32,883 nt of DNA from a virus (Duplodnaviria > Heunggongvirae > Uroviricota > Caudoviricetes), in IMG/VR virus record IMGVR_UViG_2802429220_000015, one strand, 5' to 3'. Position 1 is the first letter of the stretch. The number at the start of each line of letters is the position of its first letter. A model generated the notes under the pieces. The model was not told the DNA's origin. It saw only the letters and a list, made by a program, of their open reading frames with translations, and searched no databases. Both the position numbers and the translations under genes were made by a program. Positions 3,114 to 20,839 of the stretch are shown in pieces.

Positions 3114-4007
3114 ATGAGTTTAATTACGCAATTAAATGACGTAATGGCCCGTCGCGGCTATACGCAGACCCACGTCGCCCGTGCTATTGGTCGTAGCAGC
3201 GCCGTTATCAGCCAGTATTTGCAGGGTAAATATCAGGGCGATATGTCTGATATTGAAGAACGCATTTCTGCCTTTGTGACCCGTGAGCGGGAAAAAGAAA
3301 ACAGCCGCCGTATTAAAGCAAAGTTTGTGACCACCGGTATGGCTGCCAAAGGACTGGAGGTGCTGGCCTACGCTCACCTGGAATGTGAAATCTGTGTGCT
3401 GTATGGCGCAGCAGGTCTTGGCAAAACAATGATTCTGCGTGAATACGCCGCCAGAAACCGGGATGCGGTCCTGATTGAAGCCGACCCGGGCTATACAGCC
3501 AGAACACTGCTTGAGGAGCTGTGCCGCCAGCTGGGGGTAAAAGTTCGCGGCAATATCCACGAACTGATTGATGCATGTGTGCGAGAACTGCGTGATTCCG
3601 GTCGTCTGCTGATGGTGGACGAGGCTGAACTGCTCCCCTATCGCGCACTGGAGGTTCTGCGCCGTCTGCATGACAAAGCGGGTATCGGGGTTGTTCTGGC
3701 GGGTATGCCTCGCCTTCTGATTAACCTCAAGGGGCGTCGTGGTGAGTTCGCCCAGTTATACAGCCGCGTGGCGCTGGCGCTTAACCTGGGCGATACGTTG
3801 TCGCAGGAAGATTTTAACCAGATAGCTACCGGGTTGATGCCGGAAGCAGCAGAGCCGGAAATCAGCGAGGCGCTTTATACACGTTCGCTGGGTAATGCCC
3901 GCCGTCTGTTCAAGCTGGCGCGTGGTGTGTACCGGATTTGTGATATCAGCGATGCGCCGGTCAGTGTGCAGGCCATTGATAAATTCGCAGAAATGTTAAT
4001 TCACTGA
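3114..4007 (+). CDS. MuB-like ATP-dependent target DNA activator (AAA+ ATPase)
   Basis: 297-aa product with N-terminal HTH-like segment and Walker A motif GAAGLGKT; immediately downstream of the transposase. Confidence 0.9.
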   Translation: MSLITQLNDVMARRGYTQTHVARAIGRSSAVISQYLQGKYQGDMSDIEERISAFVTREREKENSRRIKAKFVTTGMAAKGLEVLAYAHLECEICVLYGAAGLGKTMILREYAARNRDAVLIEADPGYTARTLLEELCRQLGVKVRGNIHELIDACVRELRDSGRLLMVDEAELLPYRALEVLRRLHDKAGIGVVLAGMPRLLINLKGRRGEFAQLYSRVALALNLGDTLSQEDFNQIATGLMPEAAEPEISEALYTRSLGNARRLFKLARGVYRICDISDAPVSVQAIDKFAEMLIH

Positions 4008-4246
4008 TGGAGAACAAGACGATGGACAAGCAGACCATTAACGCCGTCCGTTCCCGTGCCCGTGTGGCCATCCACACCACTGGTGGTCGTGTAACGGGAC
4101 AACATCACCGTTTACCTGTGGTTTATGCCTGCCCGCCCGTGGGTGGTCCTGTATGGCCGGTAACGGAAATCATCCAGACATTCAGCGGCCTGCGCCGCGT
4201 GGTTAAAACGTCCTGTATCGACGGCTGCACCGTCGTATGGCAATGA
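4007..4246 (+). CDS. Hypothetical early protein
   Basis: 79-aa ORF; start overlaps the MuB stop (TGATGG); no recognisable motif. Confidence 0.4.
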   Translation: MENKTMDKQTINAVRSRARVAIHTTGGRVTGQHHRLPVVYACPPVGGPVWPVTEIIQTFSGLRRVVKTSCIDGCTVVWQ

Positions 4247-4258
4247 GAGGAAATCAGA

Positions 4259-4474
4259 ATGGCGGTCAAGTTAGAAGTAATTATCTATACCGATGAAAAC
4301 GGTACGCTTCGTGTCAGGAGCATGGGGGCTGTTGATAAAAAAGGATTTACGGATGAAGAGGTCGGAGTAAGACAACGGTTATGGGAGGTAATGAATCAAA
4401 CTCTTAATAAAGAATTTAACGGCGTTGATTTATTTTCTGTTGGCGTGGAACCCTGCGCGCAAAACACACATTAA
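4259..4474 (+). CDS. Hypothetical early protein
   Basis: 71-aa ORF preceded by GAGAGGAAA Shine-Dalgarno-like sequence. Confidence 0.5.
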   Translation: MAVKLEVIIYTDENGTLRVRSMGAVDKKGFTDEEVGVRQRLWEVMNQTLNKEFNGVDLFSVGVEPCAQNTH

Positions 4475-4503
4475 TTTGTAAATATCACTGAGGTAATTTA
4501 ATT

Positions 4504-5148
4504 ATGACGACTGAAAATAAAGTTAAGCAATACACGAAAACTGAAGCGCCTGAAGGTTACTGGGTGGATGCCCGTGGCGTAATGACACCTGAAAGTCTTA
4601 TCAAAGATATTGACCGCGACCGTGAGCAGCTGGTCGGTGAGCTTGTGGAGATGGTGATTGCTGCCTCCGCCTCACTGCGTGAACTGAAACTGCGTGCGTT
4701 TGGTGATATTCAGGCGTTTATTGACCTGTCGGCGGAGAAATACGGCGCTGTGAAAGGCGGTAAAAAAGGGAATATCACGCTTTACAGCTTTGACGGGCGT
4801 TACAAGATTCAGCGCGCCATGCAGGACCGTATCGCGTTTGATGAACGCATTCAGACCGCGAAGTCGCTGATTGATGATTGCCTGGCTGACTGGACGGAAG
4901 GTGCACGTCCTGAAATAAAAGCCATCATCAGCGAAGCATTCAGCACGGACAAGGAAGGCAACATCAACACCGGGCGCGTTCTGGCTCTGCGTCGTCTCGA
5001 TATTACGGAGGAGCGCTGGGATAACGCCATGAAACTGATTGGTGAAGCCGTCCAGGTGGTTGGCAGCAAAAGCTATATCCGCGTGTATGAGCGCGTCGGT
5101 GATTCCGACGAATACCGCGCAATCCCGCTTGATATTGCAGGGGTTTAA
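4504..5148 (+). CDS. Conserved Mu-like early protein, possibly DUF3164 family
   Basis: 214-aa ORF with clean start; family assignment is from memory of Mu-like prophage early proteins, not from a search. Confidence 0.55.
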   Translation: MTTENKVKQYTKTEAPEGYWVDARGVMTPESLIKDIDRDREQLVGELVEMVIAASASLRELKLRAFGDIQAFIDLSAEKYGAVKGGKKGNITLYSFDGRYKIQRAMQDRIAFDERIQTAKSLIDDCLADWTEGARPEIKAIISEAFSTDKEGNINTGRVLALRRLDITEERWDNAMKLIGEAVQVVGSKSYIRVYERVGDSDEYRAIPLDIAGV

Positions 5149-5149
5149 C

Positions 5150-5383
5150 ATGCATCAGGATATCAAAGAGTACAGAGCCGGAAATAGTTGCGCGGCGTAT
5201 TCGCTGGGCGCGTCCAGAGCAGAACAACGCGGCGATTATGCCGAGGCTGAAAAGTTGTGGCGTAAGGCAGCGCAAAGCCCGTGTAGCACCCTGCGCCGCA
5301 TCTGGGCTGAACATCGTGCGGAGTTCTGCGCTAACGCTCACCTGAAGGGATGGAGGCCACGCCATGAATGCGAAGAACTTTAA
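5150..5383 (+). CDS. Hypothetical small protein (weak resemblance to PerC-like regulators)
   Basis: 77-aa product from the internal ATG of track ORF 5039..5383 (MHQDIKEYRAGNS...); segment GDYAEAEKLWRKAA loosely recalls PerC-family proteins. Confidence 0.4.
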   Translation: MHQDIKEYRAGNSCAAYSLGASRAEQRGDYAEAEKLWRKAAQSPCSTLRRIWAEHRAEFCANAHLKGWRPRHECEEL

Positions 5384-5555
5384 TAAGCAGTATCCGCCAG
5401 GGACTCGCTTCATGCACACGGCACATCCGGCGTTGCGCGGTGGCCGGGTGGTGAAAACCGTTGCACCGGCCAGAGATTTTAAATGTGGTTGTGTGGTTGA
5501 AATTAATGTCGAGCCTTATTTCGTAAAAGTCGAAACACTGAAAGCAGCGCATTAA
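5364..5555 (+). CDS. Hypothetical small protein
   Basis: 63-aa ORF overlapping the end of the previous gene. Confidence 0.4.
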   Translation: MNAKNFNKQYPPGTRFMHTAHPALRGGRVVKTVAPARDFKCGCVVEINVEPYFVKVETLKAAH

Positions 5556-5585
5556 TTTAATTCGTTTTTAATTGTTATTTAAAAC

Positions 5586-5623
5586 AGGCGTAAACCCGCC
5601 GGGGCTGGCTTACGCCTGAATCT
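5586..5623 (+). repeat. Intercistronic stem-loop element, copy 1 (GGCGTAAACCCGCCGGGGCTGGCTTACGCCTGAATCTG)
   Basis: 38-nt sequence identical to 6663..6700; stem GGCGTAA/TTACGCC, then CTGAATCTG, then RBS and the start of the 5630 gene. Confidence 0.8.
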
Positions 5624-5629
5624 GGAGAA

Positions 5630-6022
5630 ATGAAAATGAGCGTTACCGTTATCAATGAAATGCTTGGGTGTAAATTCGATAAGGTGTTTACGAATCAAAG
5701 CGCCGAACTTGTTTTTTGTGGTGAACGCCATGGGGATGGCTGGGGTGTTGTATTTACGTTTTTCCACTTTCAGGAATGTTGTGAAAACGTCTGGATTGAA
5801 GACATTGTTGGCGACCTGACAGACCTGGAAGGAGCTGTTCTCACCGAAGCGGAAGTTGTAACTGAATCCAGTGATACAGAAAACGGTAGCCAGACGTGGT
5901 CATTCTTTAAGTTCGGGACATCAAAAGGTTGTGTCGTTGTCAGATGGTGCGGTGAAAGTAATGGTTTTTATTCCGAGCGAGTTTCGCTGAAGCAGCAATT
6001 AACTGACGTTCTGGATTTTTAA
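5630..6022 (+). CDS. Hypothetical acidic, Cys/His-containing protein (accessory)
   Basis: 130-aa ORF; visibly more AT-rich than flanking genes; acidic stretch EDIVGDLTDLEGAVLTEAEVVTESSDTENG. By my base counting the ATG is at 5629 and there is a 1-nt mismatch with the track frame; track coordinates used. Confidence 0.55.
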   Translation: MKMSVTVINEMLGCKFDKVFTNQSAELVFCGERHGDGWGVVFTFFHFQECCENVWIEDIVGDLTDLEGAVLTEAEVVTESSDTENGSQTWSFFKFGTSKGCVVVRWCGESNGFYSERVSLKQQLTDVLDF

Positions 6023-6043
6023 TTCTTATTCATGACTTTTTAT

Positions 6044-6073
6044 GCCGCAGGTAAACAGGTCTGCGCCTGAATC
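6044..6073 (+). repeat. Intercistronic stem-loop element, degenerate copy (CGCAG-GTAAACAGGT-CTGCG + CCTGAATC)
   Basis: Shares GTAAAC in the loop region and CGCCTGAATC with the two 38-nt copies; followed by AAGAGGA and the ATG at 6088. Confidence 0.6.
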
Positions 6074-6087
6074 AAGAGGATTTGTAT

Positions 6088-6633
6088 ATGAAAGATAAAG
6101 TCTGGGATTTTATTGTTACTCCTGAAGGTTTTGCTACCCGTTCATCTGAGAAATTAACCAATGTAACGTTATGGGCGTCATCATTGCTGGGCCATCTGGG
6201 AGCACCTGCCGATTTTATGCATGTGGTACTTGATGCGCAGATTGCCGGAAATGCTGTGGCCAGTAAGGGGGCTTATATTCAGGGGGATTTGTTCGCCATG
6301 ATGGCGAATGACACAGCAGCGCTGTATATCGCCACACGGAACATGCTGACAAGAATATCCATGCTGTCTGACTGTAAGGATATGGAAGACCTCGCATACA
6401 TCCTTGAAGATGATTTGCTCACTATTTCAGGTGTGCAGGAATCCCTCCCGCGTCAGTTGCGGTTTATTGACCTGATGGAGTCATATAAAGATAAGCCTGA
6501 TTTTTTTCAGATTCGATTCAGTGGAATGGAACTGCTGGATGAATATTATCCGCTGGATTCGATTTCCCGTGATGTGAAGGCGTTCGTAAAGTCTGTTGAC
6601 CGCCATTACCGGAAAGCTGAACGTCGTAGTTAA
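6088..6633 (+). CDS. Hypothetical protein (accessory)
   Basis: Track ORF starts at a TTG at 6082; the ATG at 6088 has AAGAGGA 7 nt upstream. AT-rich relative to neighbours. Confidence 0.55.
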   Translation: MKDKVWDFIVTPEGFATRSSEKLTNVTLWASSLLGHLGAPADFMHVVLDAQIAGNAVASKGAYIQGDLFAMMANDTAALYIATRNMLTRISMLSDCKDMEDLAYILEDDLLTISGVQESLPRQLRFIDLMESYKDKPDFFQIRFSGMELLDEYYPLDSISRDVKAFVKSVDRHYRKAERRS

Positions 6634-6662
6634 TAAGTCTGTTTTTAATTTTGTTTGTATAT

Positions 6663-6700
6663 GGCGTAAACCCGCCGGGGCTGGCTTACGCCTGAATCTG
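6663..6700 (+). repeat. Intercistronic stem-loop element, copy 2
   Basis: Exact 38-nt repeat of 5586..5623; followed by GAGGGA and the ATG at 6712. Confidence 0.8.
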
Positions 6701-6711
6701 AGGGATTCATT

Positions 6712-7440
6712 ATGGAAAATAAAAGCAAATATATCGCCAGAATTAAAAAACTGTTACGCCTTGCCAGAGGAACATCAAGCCCGGAAGAAGCCGCTAACGC
6801 TATTGCAAAAGCCCAGGCTTATATGCGCCAGCATGGTATCAGCGAAAACGACGCGGAATTGTTCGACATTCAGGAAGCTGCCAGCGCGGGTGCGCCGAGT
6901 GATGCCAGTACACCGCCGCGTTATATGCACATCCTGTGTGACCTGGTATGTAAAGCCTTCGGTGTCGAGTGTTACATCTCCGGTGAATACCGGGCTTCTG
7001 GTTCACTCAAACGTTACGTTCGTTTTTATGGTCCTGACAGCCGCCCGGAAATTGCGGCCTACGCGTTTGATGTGCTTTCCCGTCAGATGATGGCAGAGCG
7101 TAATCAATATCAGGATAAACACTGTAAGCGTTGCAAACCATCCACGCGGGTGGCCCGTGGCGACCAGTTCTGCGAAGGCTGGGTCTTTGGTGCCCGTGAT
7201 GTCATTGCGGTGTATGACGTCTCCCCGGAAGAAAAAAGCCGCCTTGAGCTTTACAGAGAAAACCTGCACAGGACTAAAGTGCGGCGCGACGGGGATATGC
7301 GCACAGCTAAAGCGTGTCGGGGTGCAGAGTTTGCCGCTACTGCTGGTTTTATCGCCGGGAAAAATGCCAGGTTGCATCAGGGGGTTAATGGTCAGAGCAA
7401 CAGGCCGCTGGCGCTGGGAGGGGATAACGATGGCTTTTAA
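6712..7440 (+). CDS. Conserved early protein, possibly DUF2786-like
   Basis: 242-aa ORF; N-terminal segment KYIARIKKLLRLARGTSSPEEAANA recalls the DUF2786 N-terminal motif (from memory). Confidence 0.55.
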   Translation: MENKSKYIARIKKLLRLARGTSSPEEAANAIAKAQAYMRQHGISENDAELFDIQEAASAGAPSDASTPPRYMHILCDLVCKAFGVECYISGEYRASGSLKRYVRFYGPDSRPEIAAYAFDVLSRQMMAERNQYQDKHCKRCKPSTRVARGDQFCEGWVFGARDVIAVYDVSPEEKSRLELYRENLHRTKVRRDGDMRTAKACRGAEFAATAGFIAGKNARLHQGVNGQSNRPLALGGDNDGF

Positions 7441-7657
7441 ACTTCTCAGTGTCACCGAAGCAATATACCAGCCGCCCGGAGAACGCCACGAATACAGGAT
7501 GAATGACGGTAGCGCGGCGGTTGAGTTTCCCAAATATCCGGGGGCTTCCCGGTGGCGGTTCTATGACAGTGCGGGACGCCGGATTATTAAAAGAACCGTG
7601 CACAACGCCATGAAAGCCGCTGTAGAACGTCACAAAAGAAGGTTTAACTGCAAATGA
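7430..7657 (+). CDS. Hypothetical small protein
   Basis: 75-aa product from the internal ATG of track ORF 7157..7657; start overlaps the end of the previous gene. Confidence 0.45.
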   Translation: MAFKLLSVTEAIYQPPGERHEYRMNDGSAAVEFPKYPGASRWRFYDSAGRRIIKRTVHNAMKAAVERHKRRFNCK

Positions 7658-8656: not shown

Positions 8657-8723
8657 TTAAATAATAACCAATAGCAGACCAAAATATATGTTTTGGTCTG
8701 CCAAAAGCGATGTTTTGGTCATT

Positions 8724-9848: not shown

Positions 9849-9853
9849 ACAGG

Positions 9854-9880
9854 AACCTCCGCAAACGCGGAGGTTTTTTA
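9854..9880 (+). terminator. Rho-independent terminator
   Basis: Stem AACCTCCGC / GCGGAGGTT with AAAC loop, followed by TTTTTTA. Confidence 0.8.
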
Positions 9881-9884
9881 TGAA

Positions 9885-9915
9885 CTGTACAGGCGATCAT
9901 GTATGGCTATAATAA
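9885..9915 (+). promoter_or_regulatory. Candidate promoter for the mor-like gene
   Basis: TATAAT hexamer at about 9908..9913 with no good -35; palindrome CTGTACAG at about 9885..9892. Confidence 0.4.
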
Positions 9916-20497: not shown

Positions 20498-20839
20498 ATG
20501 GAAAAGGTGATTGAAATTACCGCCCGCCGTGAAGGTTTTCGCCGCTGCGGTGTGGCGCACAGTGCAACCACGAAGGCATGGCCTGCGGATGCGTTCACCC
20601 CGGAACAGCTGGCGGTGCTGAAGGCTGACCCCATGCTGATTGTGGTGGAGCGCGATAAAGCGTCCGGCCAGAACGACGCGCTCCGGGGTGATGAACTGGC
20701 CGCACAGCTTGATGCCGAGCGTCAGAAAGTCAGCGAACTGACGGCGCAACTGGAAGAAGAGCGCCAGAAAGTCAGTGAACTGACCGCACGGCTGAACGCC
20801 GCACAGAAAACACAAAAAGCGGACAAAAAGGAGAAGTAA
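20498..20839 (+). CDS. Hypothetical protein with C-terminal coiled-coil tandem repeat
   Basis: 113-aa product; two 14-aa repeats ERQKVSELTAQLEE / ERQKVSELTARLNA encoded by an imperfect 42-nt tandem DNA repeat. Confidence 0.55.
   Translation: MEKVIEITARREGFRRCGVAHSATTKAWPADAFTPEQLAVLKADPMLIVVERDKASGQNDALRGDELAAQLDAERQKVSELTAQLEEERQKVSELTARLNAAQKTQKADKKEK

Follow-up and report, generated by a model that had tools for sequence, protein, structure and literature searches.

The window analyzed here, a 32,883-nt stretch of a virus of the class Caudoviricetes (IMG/VR record IMGVR_UViG_2802429220_000015), is an Escherichia coli Mu-like prophage, and the region in question, where a stem-loop element recurs three times between consecutive genes, is its early operon, as follows from a gene set comprising a Mu-type transposase, a MuB-like ATPase, DUF3164, DUF7448, DUF2786/DUF7168, GemA/gp16 and Mor (open reading frame [ORF] list, Pfam and annotated relatives). 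The three copies lie in intergenic gaps of 75, 66 and 79 nt, respectively, which are the sole gaps of 66 nt or more within 3.1-8.4 kb of the operon; elsewhere in this interval neighboring genes abut or overlap (ORF list). With a confidence of about one in two, we read the element as a conserved intercistronic stem-loop module in the early operon of enterobacterial Mu-like phages, acting as a boundary RNA hairpin and related to the P2/186 terminator. The features of the locus are given below; bit scores refer to a covariance model of the family built from 29 distinct variants.

5364-5555, + strand: conserved gene of 63 amino acids (aa), cluster c0, PHROG 5591, which precedes the hairpin in nearly all DUF3164-type Mu-like phages (ORF list, PHROGs, gene-order map)
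5556-5586, + strand: AT-rich leader of copy 1, with TTTAA(T/A) motifs about 10-12 nt apart; in recombinants it stays with the upstream gene
5585-5618, + strand: hairpin copy 1, stem CAGGCGTAA (5585-5593) / TTACGCCTG (5610-5618), 71.4 bits
5617-5627, + strand: tail TGAATC and, after it, the Shine-Dalgarno sequence (SD) GGAG belonging to the following gene; crossovers fall in the tail and the last stem bases (CGCCTGAAT)
5625-6700, no strand: 1076-bp segment with both cassettes and one repeat unit, exactly missing from relative L023 (blastn blocks)
5636-6022, + strand: accessory gene 1, DUF7448, cluster c29, whose presence varies among close relatives (Pfam, RefSeq start, tblastn, gene-order map)
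6044-6073, + strand: decayed hairpin copy 2 (HP'), GCCGCAG gtaaacaggt CTGCGCC TGAATC, after the DUF7448 gene
6088-6633, + strand: accessory gene 2, 181-183 aa, cluster c20, PHROG 7741 (unknown function), present or absent independently of gene 1
6634-6662, + strand: AT-rich leader of copy 3, homologous to 5558-5586 and part of the 67-nt direct repeat
6663-6692, + strand: hairpin copy 3, GGCGTAA (6663-6669), 16-nt apical part and TTACGCC (6686-6692), 69.6 bits
6693-6704, + strand: tail TGAATC, then SD GAGGG of the DUF2786/DUF7168 gene (from the sequence)
6712-7440, + strand: DUF2786/DUF7168 gene, cluster c4, in most Mu-like phages directly 3' of a single hairpin (Pfam, gene-order map)

The 38-mer GGCGTAAACCCGCCGGGGCTGGCTTACGCCTGAATCTG occurs exactly twice (5587-5624 and 6663-6700) and has no match in shuffles of the window. 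An earlier, sequence-only reading of this DNA had pointed out both identical strings, placing the first of them one nucleotide too early (5586-5623), and had correctly described a degenerate third copy at 6044-6073. The full direct repeat is 67 nt long (5558-5624 and 6634-6700, 82% identity) and begins at the stop codon of the upstream gene. As that reading had also seen, every copy has a stop codon on its 5' side and the SD and ATG of the next gene on its 3' side and is preceded by a similar AT-rich stretch, with TTTTTAATT ahead of all three. The 9-mer GCCTGAATC taken alone has 13 matches in the window (up to one mismatch) against 7.3 expected, which is not a significant enrichment. Copy 2 is marginal by itself (12.2 bits, E = 1.7); its counterpart in relative L002 has a perfect 7-bp stem GGCGCAG/CTGCGCC (30.8 bits, E = 2e-4), and a further variant, GCGCAGG tcggcagg CCTGCGC, lies 3' of the same DUF7448 gene in L011 and L038. 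Two ATGs in frame, at 5630 and 5636, are available to the gene that follows copy 1, and its SD, GGAG, lies at 5624-5627; since this SD is merely 2 nt from the ATG at 5630, which had been taken as the start before, the one at 5636 is more likely, in agreement with the RefSeq annotation.

On the + strand, the 38-mer folds into a 7-bp stem GGCGUAA/UUACGCC topped by an inner stem CC.GC/GC.GG and a CGGG loop (−15.1 kcal/mol), and the same inner stem and loop lie in the 16-nt apical part ACCCGCCGGGGCTGGC of copy 1. Hairpin energies on this strand range from −13.9 to −15.1 kcal/mol, with a lower stem of 7-9 bp plus the inner stem. The 3' tail is partly paired in relatives, where the stem extends to 9 bp for copy 1 (CAGGCG...CGCCTG) and to 12 bp in a second family (ATTCAGGCGTAA/TTACGCCTGAAT). 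A loop-tail pairing of UCAGG with CCUGA, spotted by eye in Mu and a few variants, was dropped, being absent from the main variant and from the variants with an AAAATC tail.

The covariation analysis across homologous prophages, for which 35 variants were aligned, supports the predicted base pairing of the hairpin. The pair just outside GGCG/CGCC (−1/+1) is UA in 15 sequences, CG in 8 and AU in 4; the pair 19-41 is UA in 25 and CG in 9, and the pair 20-40 is AU in 22 and GC in 5. Cells changed on both sides number 35, compared with 19.6 ± 3.0 in shuffled alignments, none of 500 shuffles reached the observed covariation score, and the paired fraction of cells drops by half when the partner columns are shifted. 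GGCG, CGCC and an apical G-Y-C-(A/G)-G-G-G are near-invariant, and one A.C mismatch is conserved above the lower stem. The length of the apical part varies among 8, 10, 15, 16 and 17 nt, which suggests a folded strand rather than a rigid double-stranded DNA operator. Taken together, the predicted module consists of an AT-rich stretch, GGCG-NNN-(apical G-Y-C-A/G-GGG)-NNN-CGCC, a tail W-R-A-A-W-Y and the SD of the next gene.

The distribution of the element is wide and tied to one position. Among 80 viral contigs collected through their DUF3164 protein (64-100% aa identity), about 75 carry one strong match to the family model (50-75 bits), always on the operon strand and always a few hundred bases downstream of DUF3164; two or three copies occur only in close relatives of the window. 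The single copy is about 90% identical in phages whose flanking proteins share 64-76% identity. Phage Mu itself has a copy at 6368-6397, between gam (Mup10) and Mup11 (gp11), which reads GGCGCGA tacgtcaggagattgc TCGCGCC tgaaac and differs from the stem of the window by two base pairs altered on both sides, i.e., by compensatory changes. Every Mu-family contig retrieved through Gam has the element directly after gam; relatives with 73-80% identical Gam bear further variants (CGGCGC...GCGUCAGGG...GCGCCG), and in gam-bearing phages farther away the position is taken by hairpins that are unrelated, one of which has A- and U-tracts on its flanks. When one genome per species was scanned for the pattern, about 28 matches proved true, all in Enterobacterales and with the same layout, distributed over more than 12 genera (Morganella, Photorhabdus, Xenorhabdus, Yersinia, Pectobacterium, Brenneria, Pantoea, Edwardsiella, Citrobacter, Kluyvera, Kosakonia, Trabulsiella and others). 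Within E. coli, the 75-nt element is present in 59 of 5426 complete genomes, at one to four places in each, and the two regions inspected are Mu-like prophages; a host-wide repeat of the REP/BIME or ERIC kind, scattered irrespective of gene boundaries, is thus ruled out. Rfam returned nothing relevant at E-values up to 10.

Because a single copy with compensatory stem changes is found in about 75 of the 80 contigs, in Mu and across Enterobacterales, the comparison indicates that the element is older than the cassette insertions and is under selection. It ranks among the most conserved non-coding pieces of these phage genomes and lies where the conserved transposition and replication genes stop and fast-evolving accessory genes start. 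The 2.2-kb region had no match in GenBank phage records apart from a 68%-identical stretch in the 'Pseudomonas' phage VW-6B (MF975721; L102). This phage has a Mu-like early region and, at 3487-3540, a hairpin of the enterobacterial type (73.5 bits); its recorded host, Pseudomonas fluorescens, is unexpected, as all genome matches were in Enterobacterales.

The gene-order map of 83 loci gives the ancestral order as DUF3164, the 63-aa gene, the hairpin and the DUF2786/DUF7168 gene, with variable accessory genes inserted immediately 3' of the hairpin in many lineages. As judged from these comparisons, the ancestral state was one copy, located where the conserved left operon (A, B ... DUF3164 or gam) gives way to the variable accessory part, and the window has three copies because it has two accessory genes, DUF7448 and the 183-aa gene, each of which carries a copy at its 3' end. 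All combinations exist in the lineage of the window: neither insert in L023; the 183-aa gene only in L024, L027 and L032; DUF7448 only in L038; and both in the window, L001, L002, L029 and L037. L023 matches the window at 5000-5624 (100%) and 6641-7600 (98.9%); since the two blastn blocks overlap by 61 nt in L023, this relative lacks exactly 5625-6700, one repeat period. L024, L027 and L032 lack 5622-6063, with the 9 nt CGCCTGAAT as junction, and L038 lacks the 183-aa gene, with an overlap of 45 nt in hairpin and leader. By blastn mapping, all three indel junctions therefore fall inside hairpin copies, and the alignments show that recombination between copies removes or adds accessory genes, with the hairpin supplying the homology.

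The type of hairpin tracks the upstream gene, HP' always following DUF7448 and the full hairpin always following the 63-aa and 183-aa genes, whereas SD and leader track the downstream gene. From this it follows that the exchanged unit is a gene with its 3' hairpin and that crossovers take place at the 3' edge of the hairpin, which corresponds to the CGCCTGAATC tail of the sequence-only reading. Such a shared patch of homology could explain how accessory genes of unknown function are swapped without disrupting the operon, and swaps of this kind could even cross between unrelated temperate phage families in the same hosts. In the E. coli STEC316 prophage (L002), an annotated 72-aa gene on the opposite strand (7216-7434) lies after the third hairpin and before the DUF2786 gene (region 7145-7522), and has the appearance of a moron that entered this hot spot in inverted orientation. 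In the prophage of E. coli RM9088 (L001), with about 99% DUF3164 aa identity to the window and 100% identity over the 75-nt element, IS1A insertions interrupt the early region at 1299-1996 and 4072-4769, one of them within the transposase gene, and this prophage copy is probably defective.

As for the cassette genes themselves, Pfam and PHROGs return 'unknown function' only, and the 183-aa protein has no match in phage records. DUF7448 homologues were found by tblastn in unrelated Bacillus, Acinetobacter, Salmonella and Escherichia phages, a distribution that fits horizontal acquisition. Other parts of the window contain three further features. At 9852-9913, 3' of a 159-aa signal-peptide gene, there is a canonical intrinsic terminator on the + strand (AACCTCCGC aaac GCGGAGGTT TTTTTA), and between it and the Mor-like gene a site resembling a promoter, TGTACA-16-TATAAT; Mor thus appears to have a promoter of its own here, instead of closing the early operon as in Mu. 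An intergenic hairpin of a second kind, CAGACCAAAA tatatg TTTTGGTCTG, is located at 8657-8723, where a further copy of GTTTTGGTC (8712-8720) adjoins the next start codon and could, by alternative pairing, serve as a translational switch. Finally, a 42-nt tandem repeat (20693-20776, 76% identity) inside a late-region coding sequence encodes a repeated 14-residue motif.

Elements of similar design are present in P2/186-type phages. There, a short BLAST and a pattern scan detected GGCGTAAACCCGCCGGGC attctttt GCCCgAAATCtGGAG in the gap of the early operon that precedes the DUF2732 gene (orf79 in 186); the sequence is shared by about 100 records of phages and by no fewer than 120 contigs of viral origin. 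In the GenBank record of 186 this site is 'tR1', one of several transcription terminators of the region, which are anti-terminated 'during early lytic ...'; in P2 a 'putative rho-independent terminator' is annotated between B and orf80 (CGCACttaattGTGCG GGGC TTCTTTTT GCC TGGAG). The family model scores the P2/186-type elements at 24-29 bits (Kc166BP, 28.9; 186, 24.1). The window element and the 186-type element have in common the exact 18-mer GGCGTAAACCCGCCGGGC and the tail AAATC-GGAG. Both types mark a module border, lying in a gap of the early operon (about 65-100 nt) that separates accessory or regulatory genes from the SD that comes next, with TTAATT-rich sequence upstream, and the setting is the same in the annotated phages Midge, ENT90, Kc166BP, 186 and P2. 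They differ in the 3' half: after GGGC, the Mu-like element has TGGCTTAC, whereas 186 has the U-rich ATTCTTTT and P2 has TTCTTTTT. The P2/186 hairpin is accordingly limited to a short GGCG/CGCC stem (CGCAC/GUGCG in P2), while the Mu-like TGGCTTAC pairs back with GGCGTAA into a hairpin of 11-13 bp and no U-tract follows.

The alignment shows the Mu-like, 186 and P2 versions to be related both in position and in sequence; having TGGCTTAC in place of the U-rich run creates the long hairpin and removes the U-tract. Because the exact 18-mer is shared despite the different pairing partner, recombination between the two phage families at CGGGGC is suggested. No description of the Mu gam-gp11 hairpin was found in the searchable literature, and the kinship of the Mu-like element with the P2/186 early terminator appears unreported. 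Mu, 186 and P2 are all textbook phages.

Our best reading of these data is that the hairpin marks the 3' end of each early-operon cassette, where it probably serves as a decay barrier or attenuator. It would act as a boundary in the + strand early transcript: a structure without U-tract would block 3'-to-5' decay of the upstream segment or, alternatively, would attenuate or pause transcription, a property inherited from a terminator-like ancestor. Such a boundary could set unequal expression of the transposition genes and the accessory genes, and would keep the surroundings of the next ribosome-binding site constant and free of structure. The sequence-only reading had offered two explanations, of which a putative RNA element acting on the early transcript fits the fixed orientation, the 18-34 nt to the start codon, the covariation and a weak excess of G.U over A.C pairs on the operon strand. 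Junction scars of modular insertion, the other explanation, agree with the clean presence and absence of cassettes and with junctions inside the copies; mere scars would not be conserved with compensatory changes. Should the element indeed adjust how strongly one half of the early operon is expressed relative to the other, it would be a simple and easily tested regulatory device.

Several observations weigh against the boundary reading. The thermodynamic significance of the fold is modest, with z = −1.9 relative to shuffles for the 38-mer on the + strand and, in context, only −0.98 for copy 3 and −0.03 for copy 2. The minus strand of the 38-mer folds better (−18.4 kcal/mol, z = −4.1), and its fold is the more stable one in most variants. 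Wobble totals are equal, at 25 G.U cells per strand; 17 of the 25 cells of the minus strand come from the one conserved A.C pair, and elsewhere + strand G.U cells outnumber A.C cells by 21 to 8, which amounts to a weak excess on the operon strand. Wobble pairs do not clearly favor either strand as the one under selection. In addition, the near-invariant GGCG/CGCC and apex exceed the needs of a generic decay barrier and point to a sequence-specific partner. Upstream of the hairpin (positions −33 to −1 of 50 distinct sequences), TTTAA(A) recurs as a conserved motif at −9, −19 and −29; its 10-nt period equals the DNA helical repeat and looks like a DNA-level feature, and candidate roles are bending of the DNA, binding of a protein and an AU-rich site in the RNA. 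A boundary function accounts for neither the invariance of base and apex nor the phased TTTAA, which leaves room for a protein partner or a role at the DNA level, and stabilization, processing and attenuation are all functions that we infer from sequence.

The alternatives are each unlikely in our estimation. Translational control, in which a hairpin 8-14 nt upstream of the SD, with its SD-like purine loop, tunes or insulates ribosome loading on the next cistron, is an outside chance; it draws on the constant 18-34 nt between hairpin and start codon, on an SD after every copy, on a loop rich in G throughout the variants (Mu, AGGAG; others, AGGGG or CGGGG) and on a copy 3 tail that can pair with the SD, yet this tail-SD pairing is not conserved across variants and the hairpin type segregates with the upstream, not the downstream, gene. 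Slightly less credit is due to specific recognition, whereby a conserved host or phage factor would bind RNA or a folded single strand through the invariant GGCG/CGCC base and the G-Y-C-A-GGG apex, either for terminator resistance or a regulated pause (cf. the anti-terminated 186 terminators) or as a capture site for cassettes common to Mu-like and P2-like phages. The same low standing is given to a double-stranded DNA site at which a phage regulator or nucleoid protein reads the inverted repeat GGCGTAA/TTACGCC together with the phased TTTAA. Near-invariant half-sites, the helical period of the motifs at −9, −19 and −29 and wobble counts that favor neither strand clearly would suit such a site, whereas an arm spacing that varies from 8 to 17 nt, arms that covary as base pairs, Mu included (GGCGCGA/TCGCGCC), with pairing kept in the inner part as well, and 186-type phages that retain the 5' half without its pairing partner all argue otherwise; nor would one expect a common operator in phages that, like these, are heteroimmune.

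The remaining explanations fare worse. That the copies are non-functional recombination scars or linkers persisting by descent alone is very improbable and already largely refuted by conservation: all observed indel junctions do fall in copies and copy 2 is decaying, but a single copy about 90% identical between phages with 64-76% identical flanking proteins, its compensatory changes and its Enterobacterales-wide occurrence are not expected of scars, and most phages, being single-copy, have nothing to scar. An intrinsic terminator, whether antisense on the minus strand or on the + strand as in 186 tR1, is more doubtful still. The minus-strand fold is the more stable in most variants, TTTT follows copy 1 on that strand, and the 186 and P2 relatives are annotated as terminators; against this, none of the 35 variants has five or more T in the 8 nt 3' of the stem on the + strand (mean 1.8), in accordance with the earlier remark that no U run follows and that these are not classic terminators, and only 6 of the 35 do so on the minus strand, where the tract is absent in copy 3 and Mu. 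A terminator consensus scan called no copy, although it does call the stem of the canonical terminator at 9854-9875, with its following T run on the + strand; a canonical terminator on either strand was ruled out by the U-tract counts. Very little likelihood attaches to a PeSL-like unit whose AT-rich part is a sigma-70 promoter and whose hairpin is its leader or terminator. The layout matches that of T4-type PeSLs and −10-like strings (TAAAAT or AATTAT) stand just before GGCG, but a promoter consensus scan found no match at any copy, so that an internal promoter was rejected; no −35 is conserved upstream of the hairpin, a −10 set directly against GGCG would place the transcription start within the 5' arm, and the 186 record annotates no promoter at tR1. 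Least credible of all is a site for cassette capture by site-specific recombination, like an integron attC, whose folded strand is recognized by an enzyme. In its favor, a hairpin closes every cassette on the 3' side, the crossovers gather at the 3' edge of the element (CGCCTGAAT) and the core is invariant; yet no integron-type integrase occurs among the annotated genes of the two 12-kb prophage early regions examined, the arms GGCGTAA/TTACGCC do not, by reading the sequence, fit the attC core consensus RYYYAAC / GTTRRRY, the events number only three, all explicable by 9-67 nt of homology, and most phages have a single copy.

The boundary hairpin, which is our preferred reading, has parallels in known systems. 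In the early transcript of T7, RNase III sites are repeated stem-loops between consecutive early genes, with duplexes of about 20 bp or more and an internal loop. The present element resembles them as repeated stem-loops between successive early genes of a phage polycistronic mRNA, and differs in its stem of 11-13 bp; an RNase III-type long duplex was discarded as a candidate, extended pairing being predicted around copy 1 only and not around copies 2 and 3. Intercistronic stem-loops that stabilize upstream mRNA include the REP sequences in malEFG and the hairpins of the puf operon, and underlie selective RNA processing and stabilization. Like these, the Mu-like hairpin lies within a polycistronic transcript and has no U-tract, and differential expression of the flanking genes is plausible; stabilizing stem-loops are little constrained beyond the stem, whereas here GGCG/CGCC and the apical motif are near-invariant. 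In the T4-type PeSL cassettes, ORFans lie between AT-rich and stem-loop motifs at which transcription terminates and through which shuffling takes place (Arbiol et al., 2010; PMC2839356). PeSLs have strong sigma-70 promoters, are many per genome and have been shown to terminate (PMC2839356), whereas the element described here has no promoter match and no U-tract, is usually present as one copy and belongs to a temperate transposable phage. The two are alike in that a conserved intergenic AT-rich stretch with a G/C stem-loop flanks non-essential or variable ORFs in a plastic region, and in that recombination between copies deletes or inserts an ORF by crossovers within the motif, as exemplified by L023, by L024, L027 and L032, and by L038.

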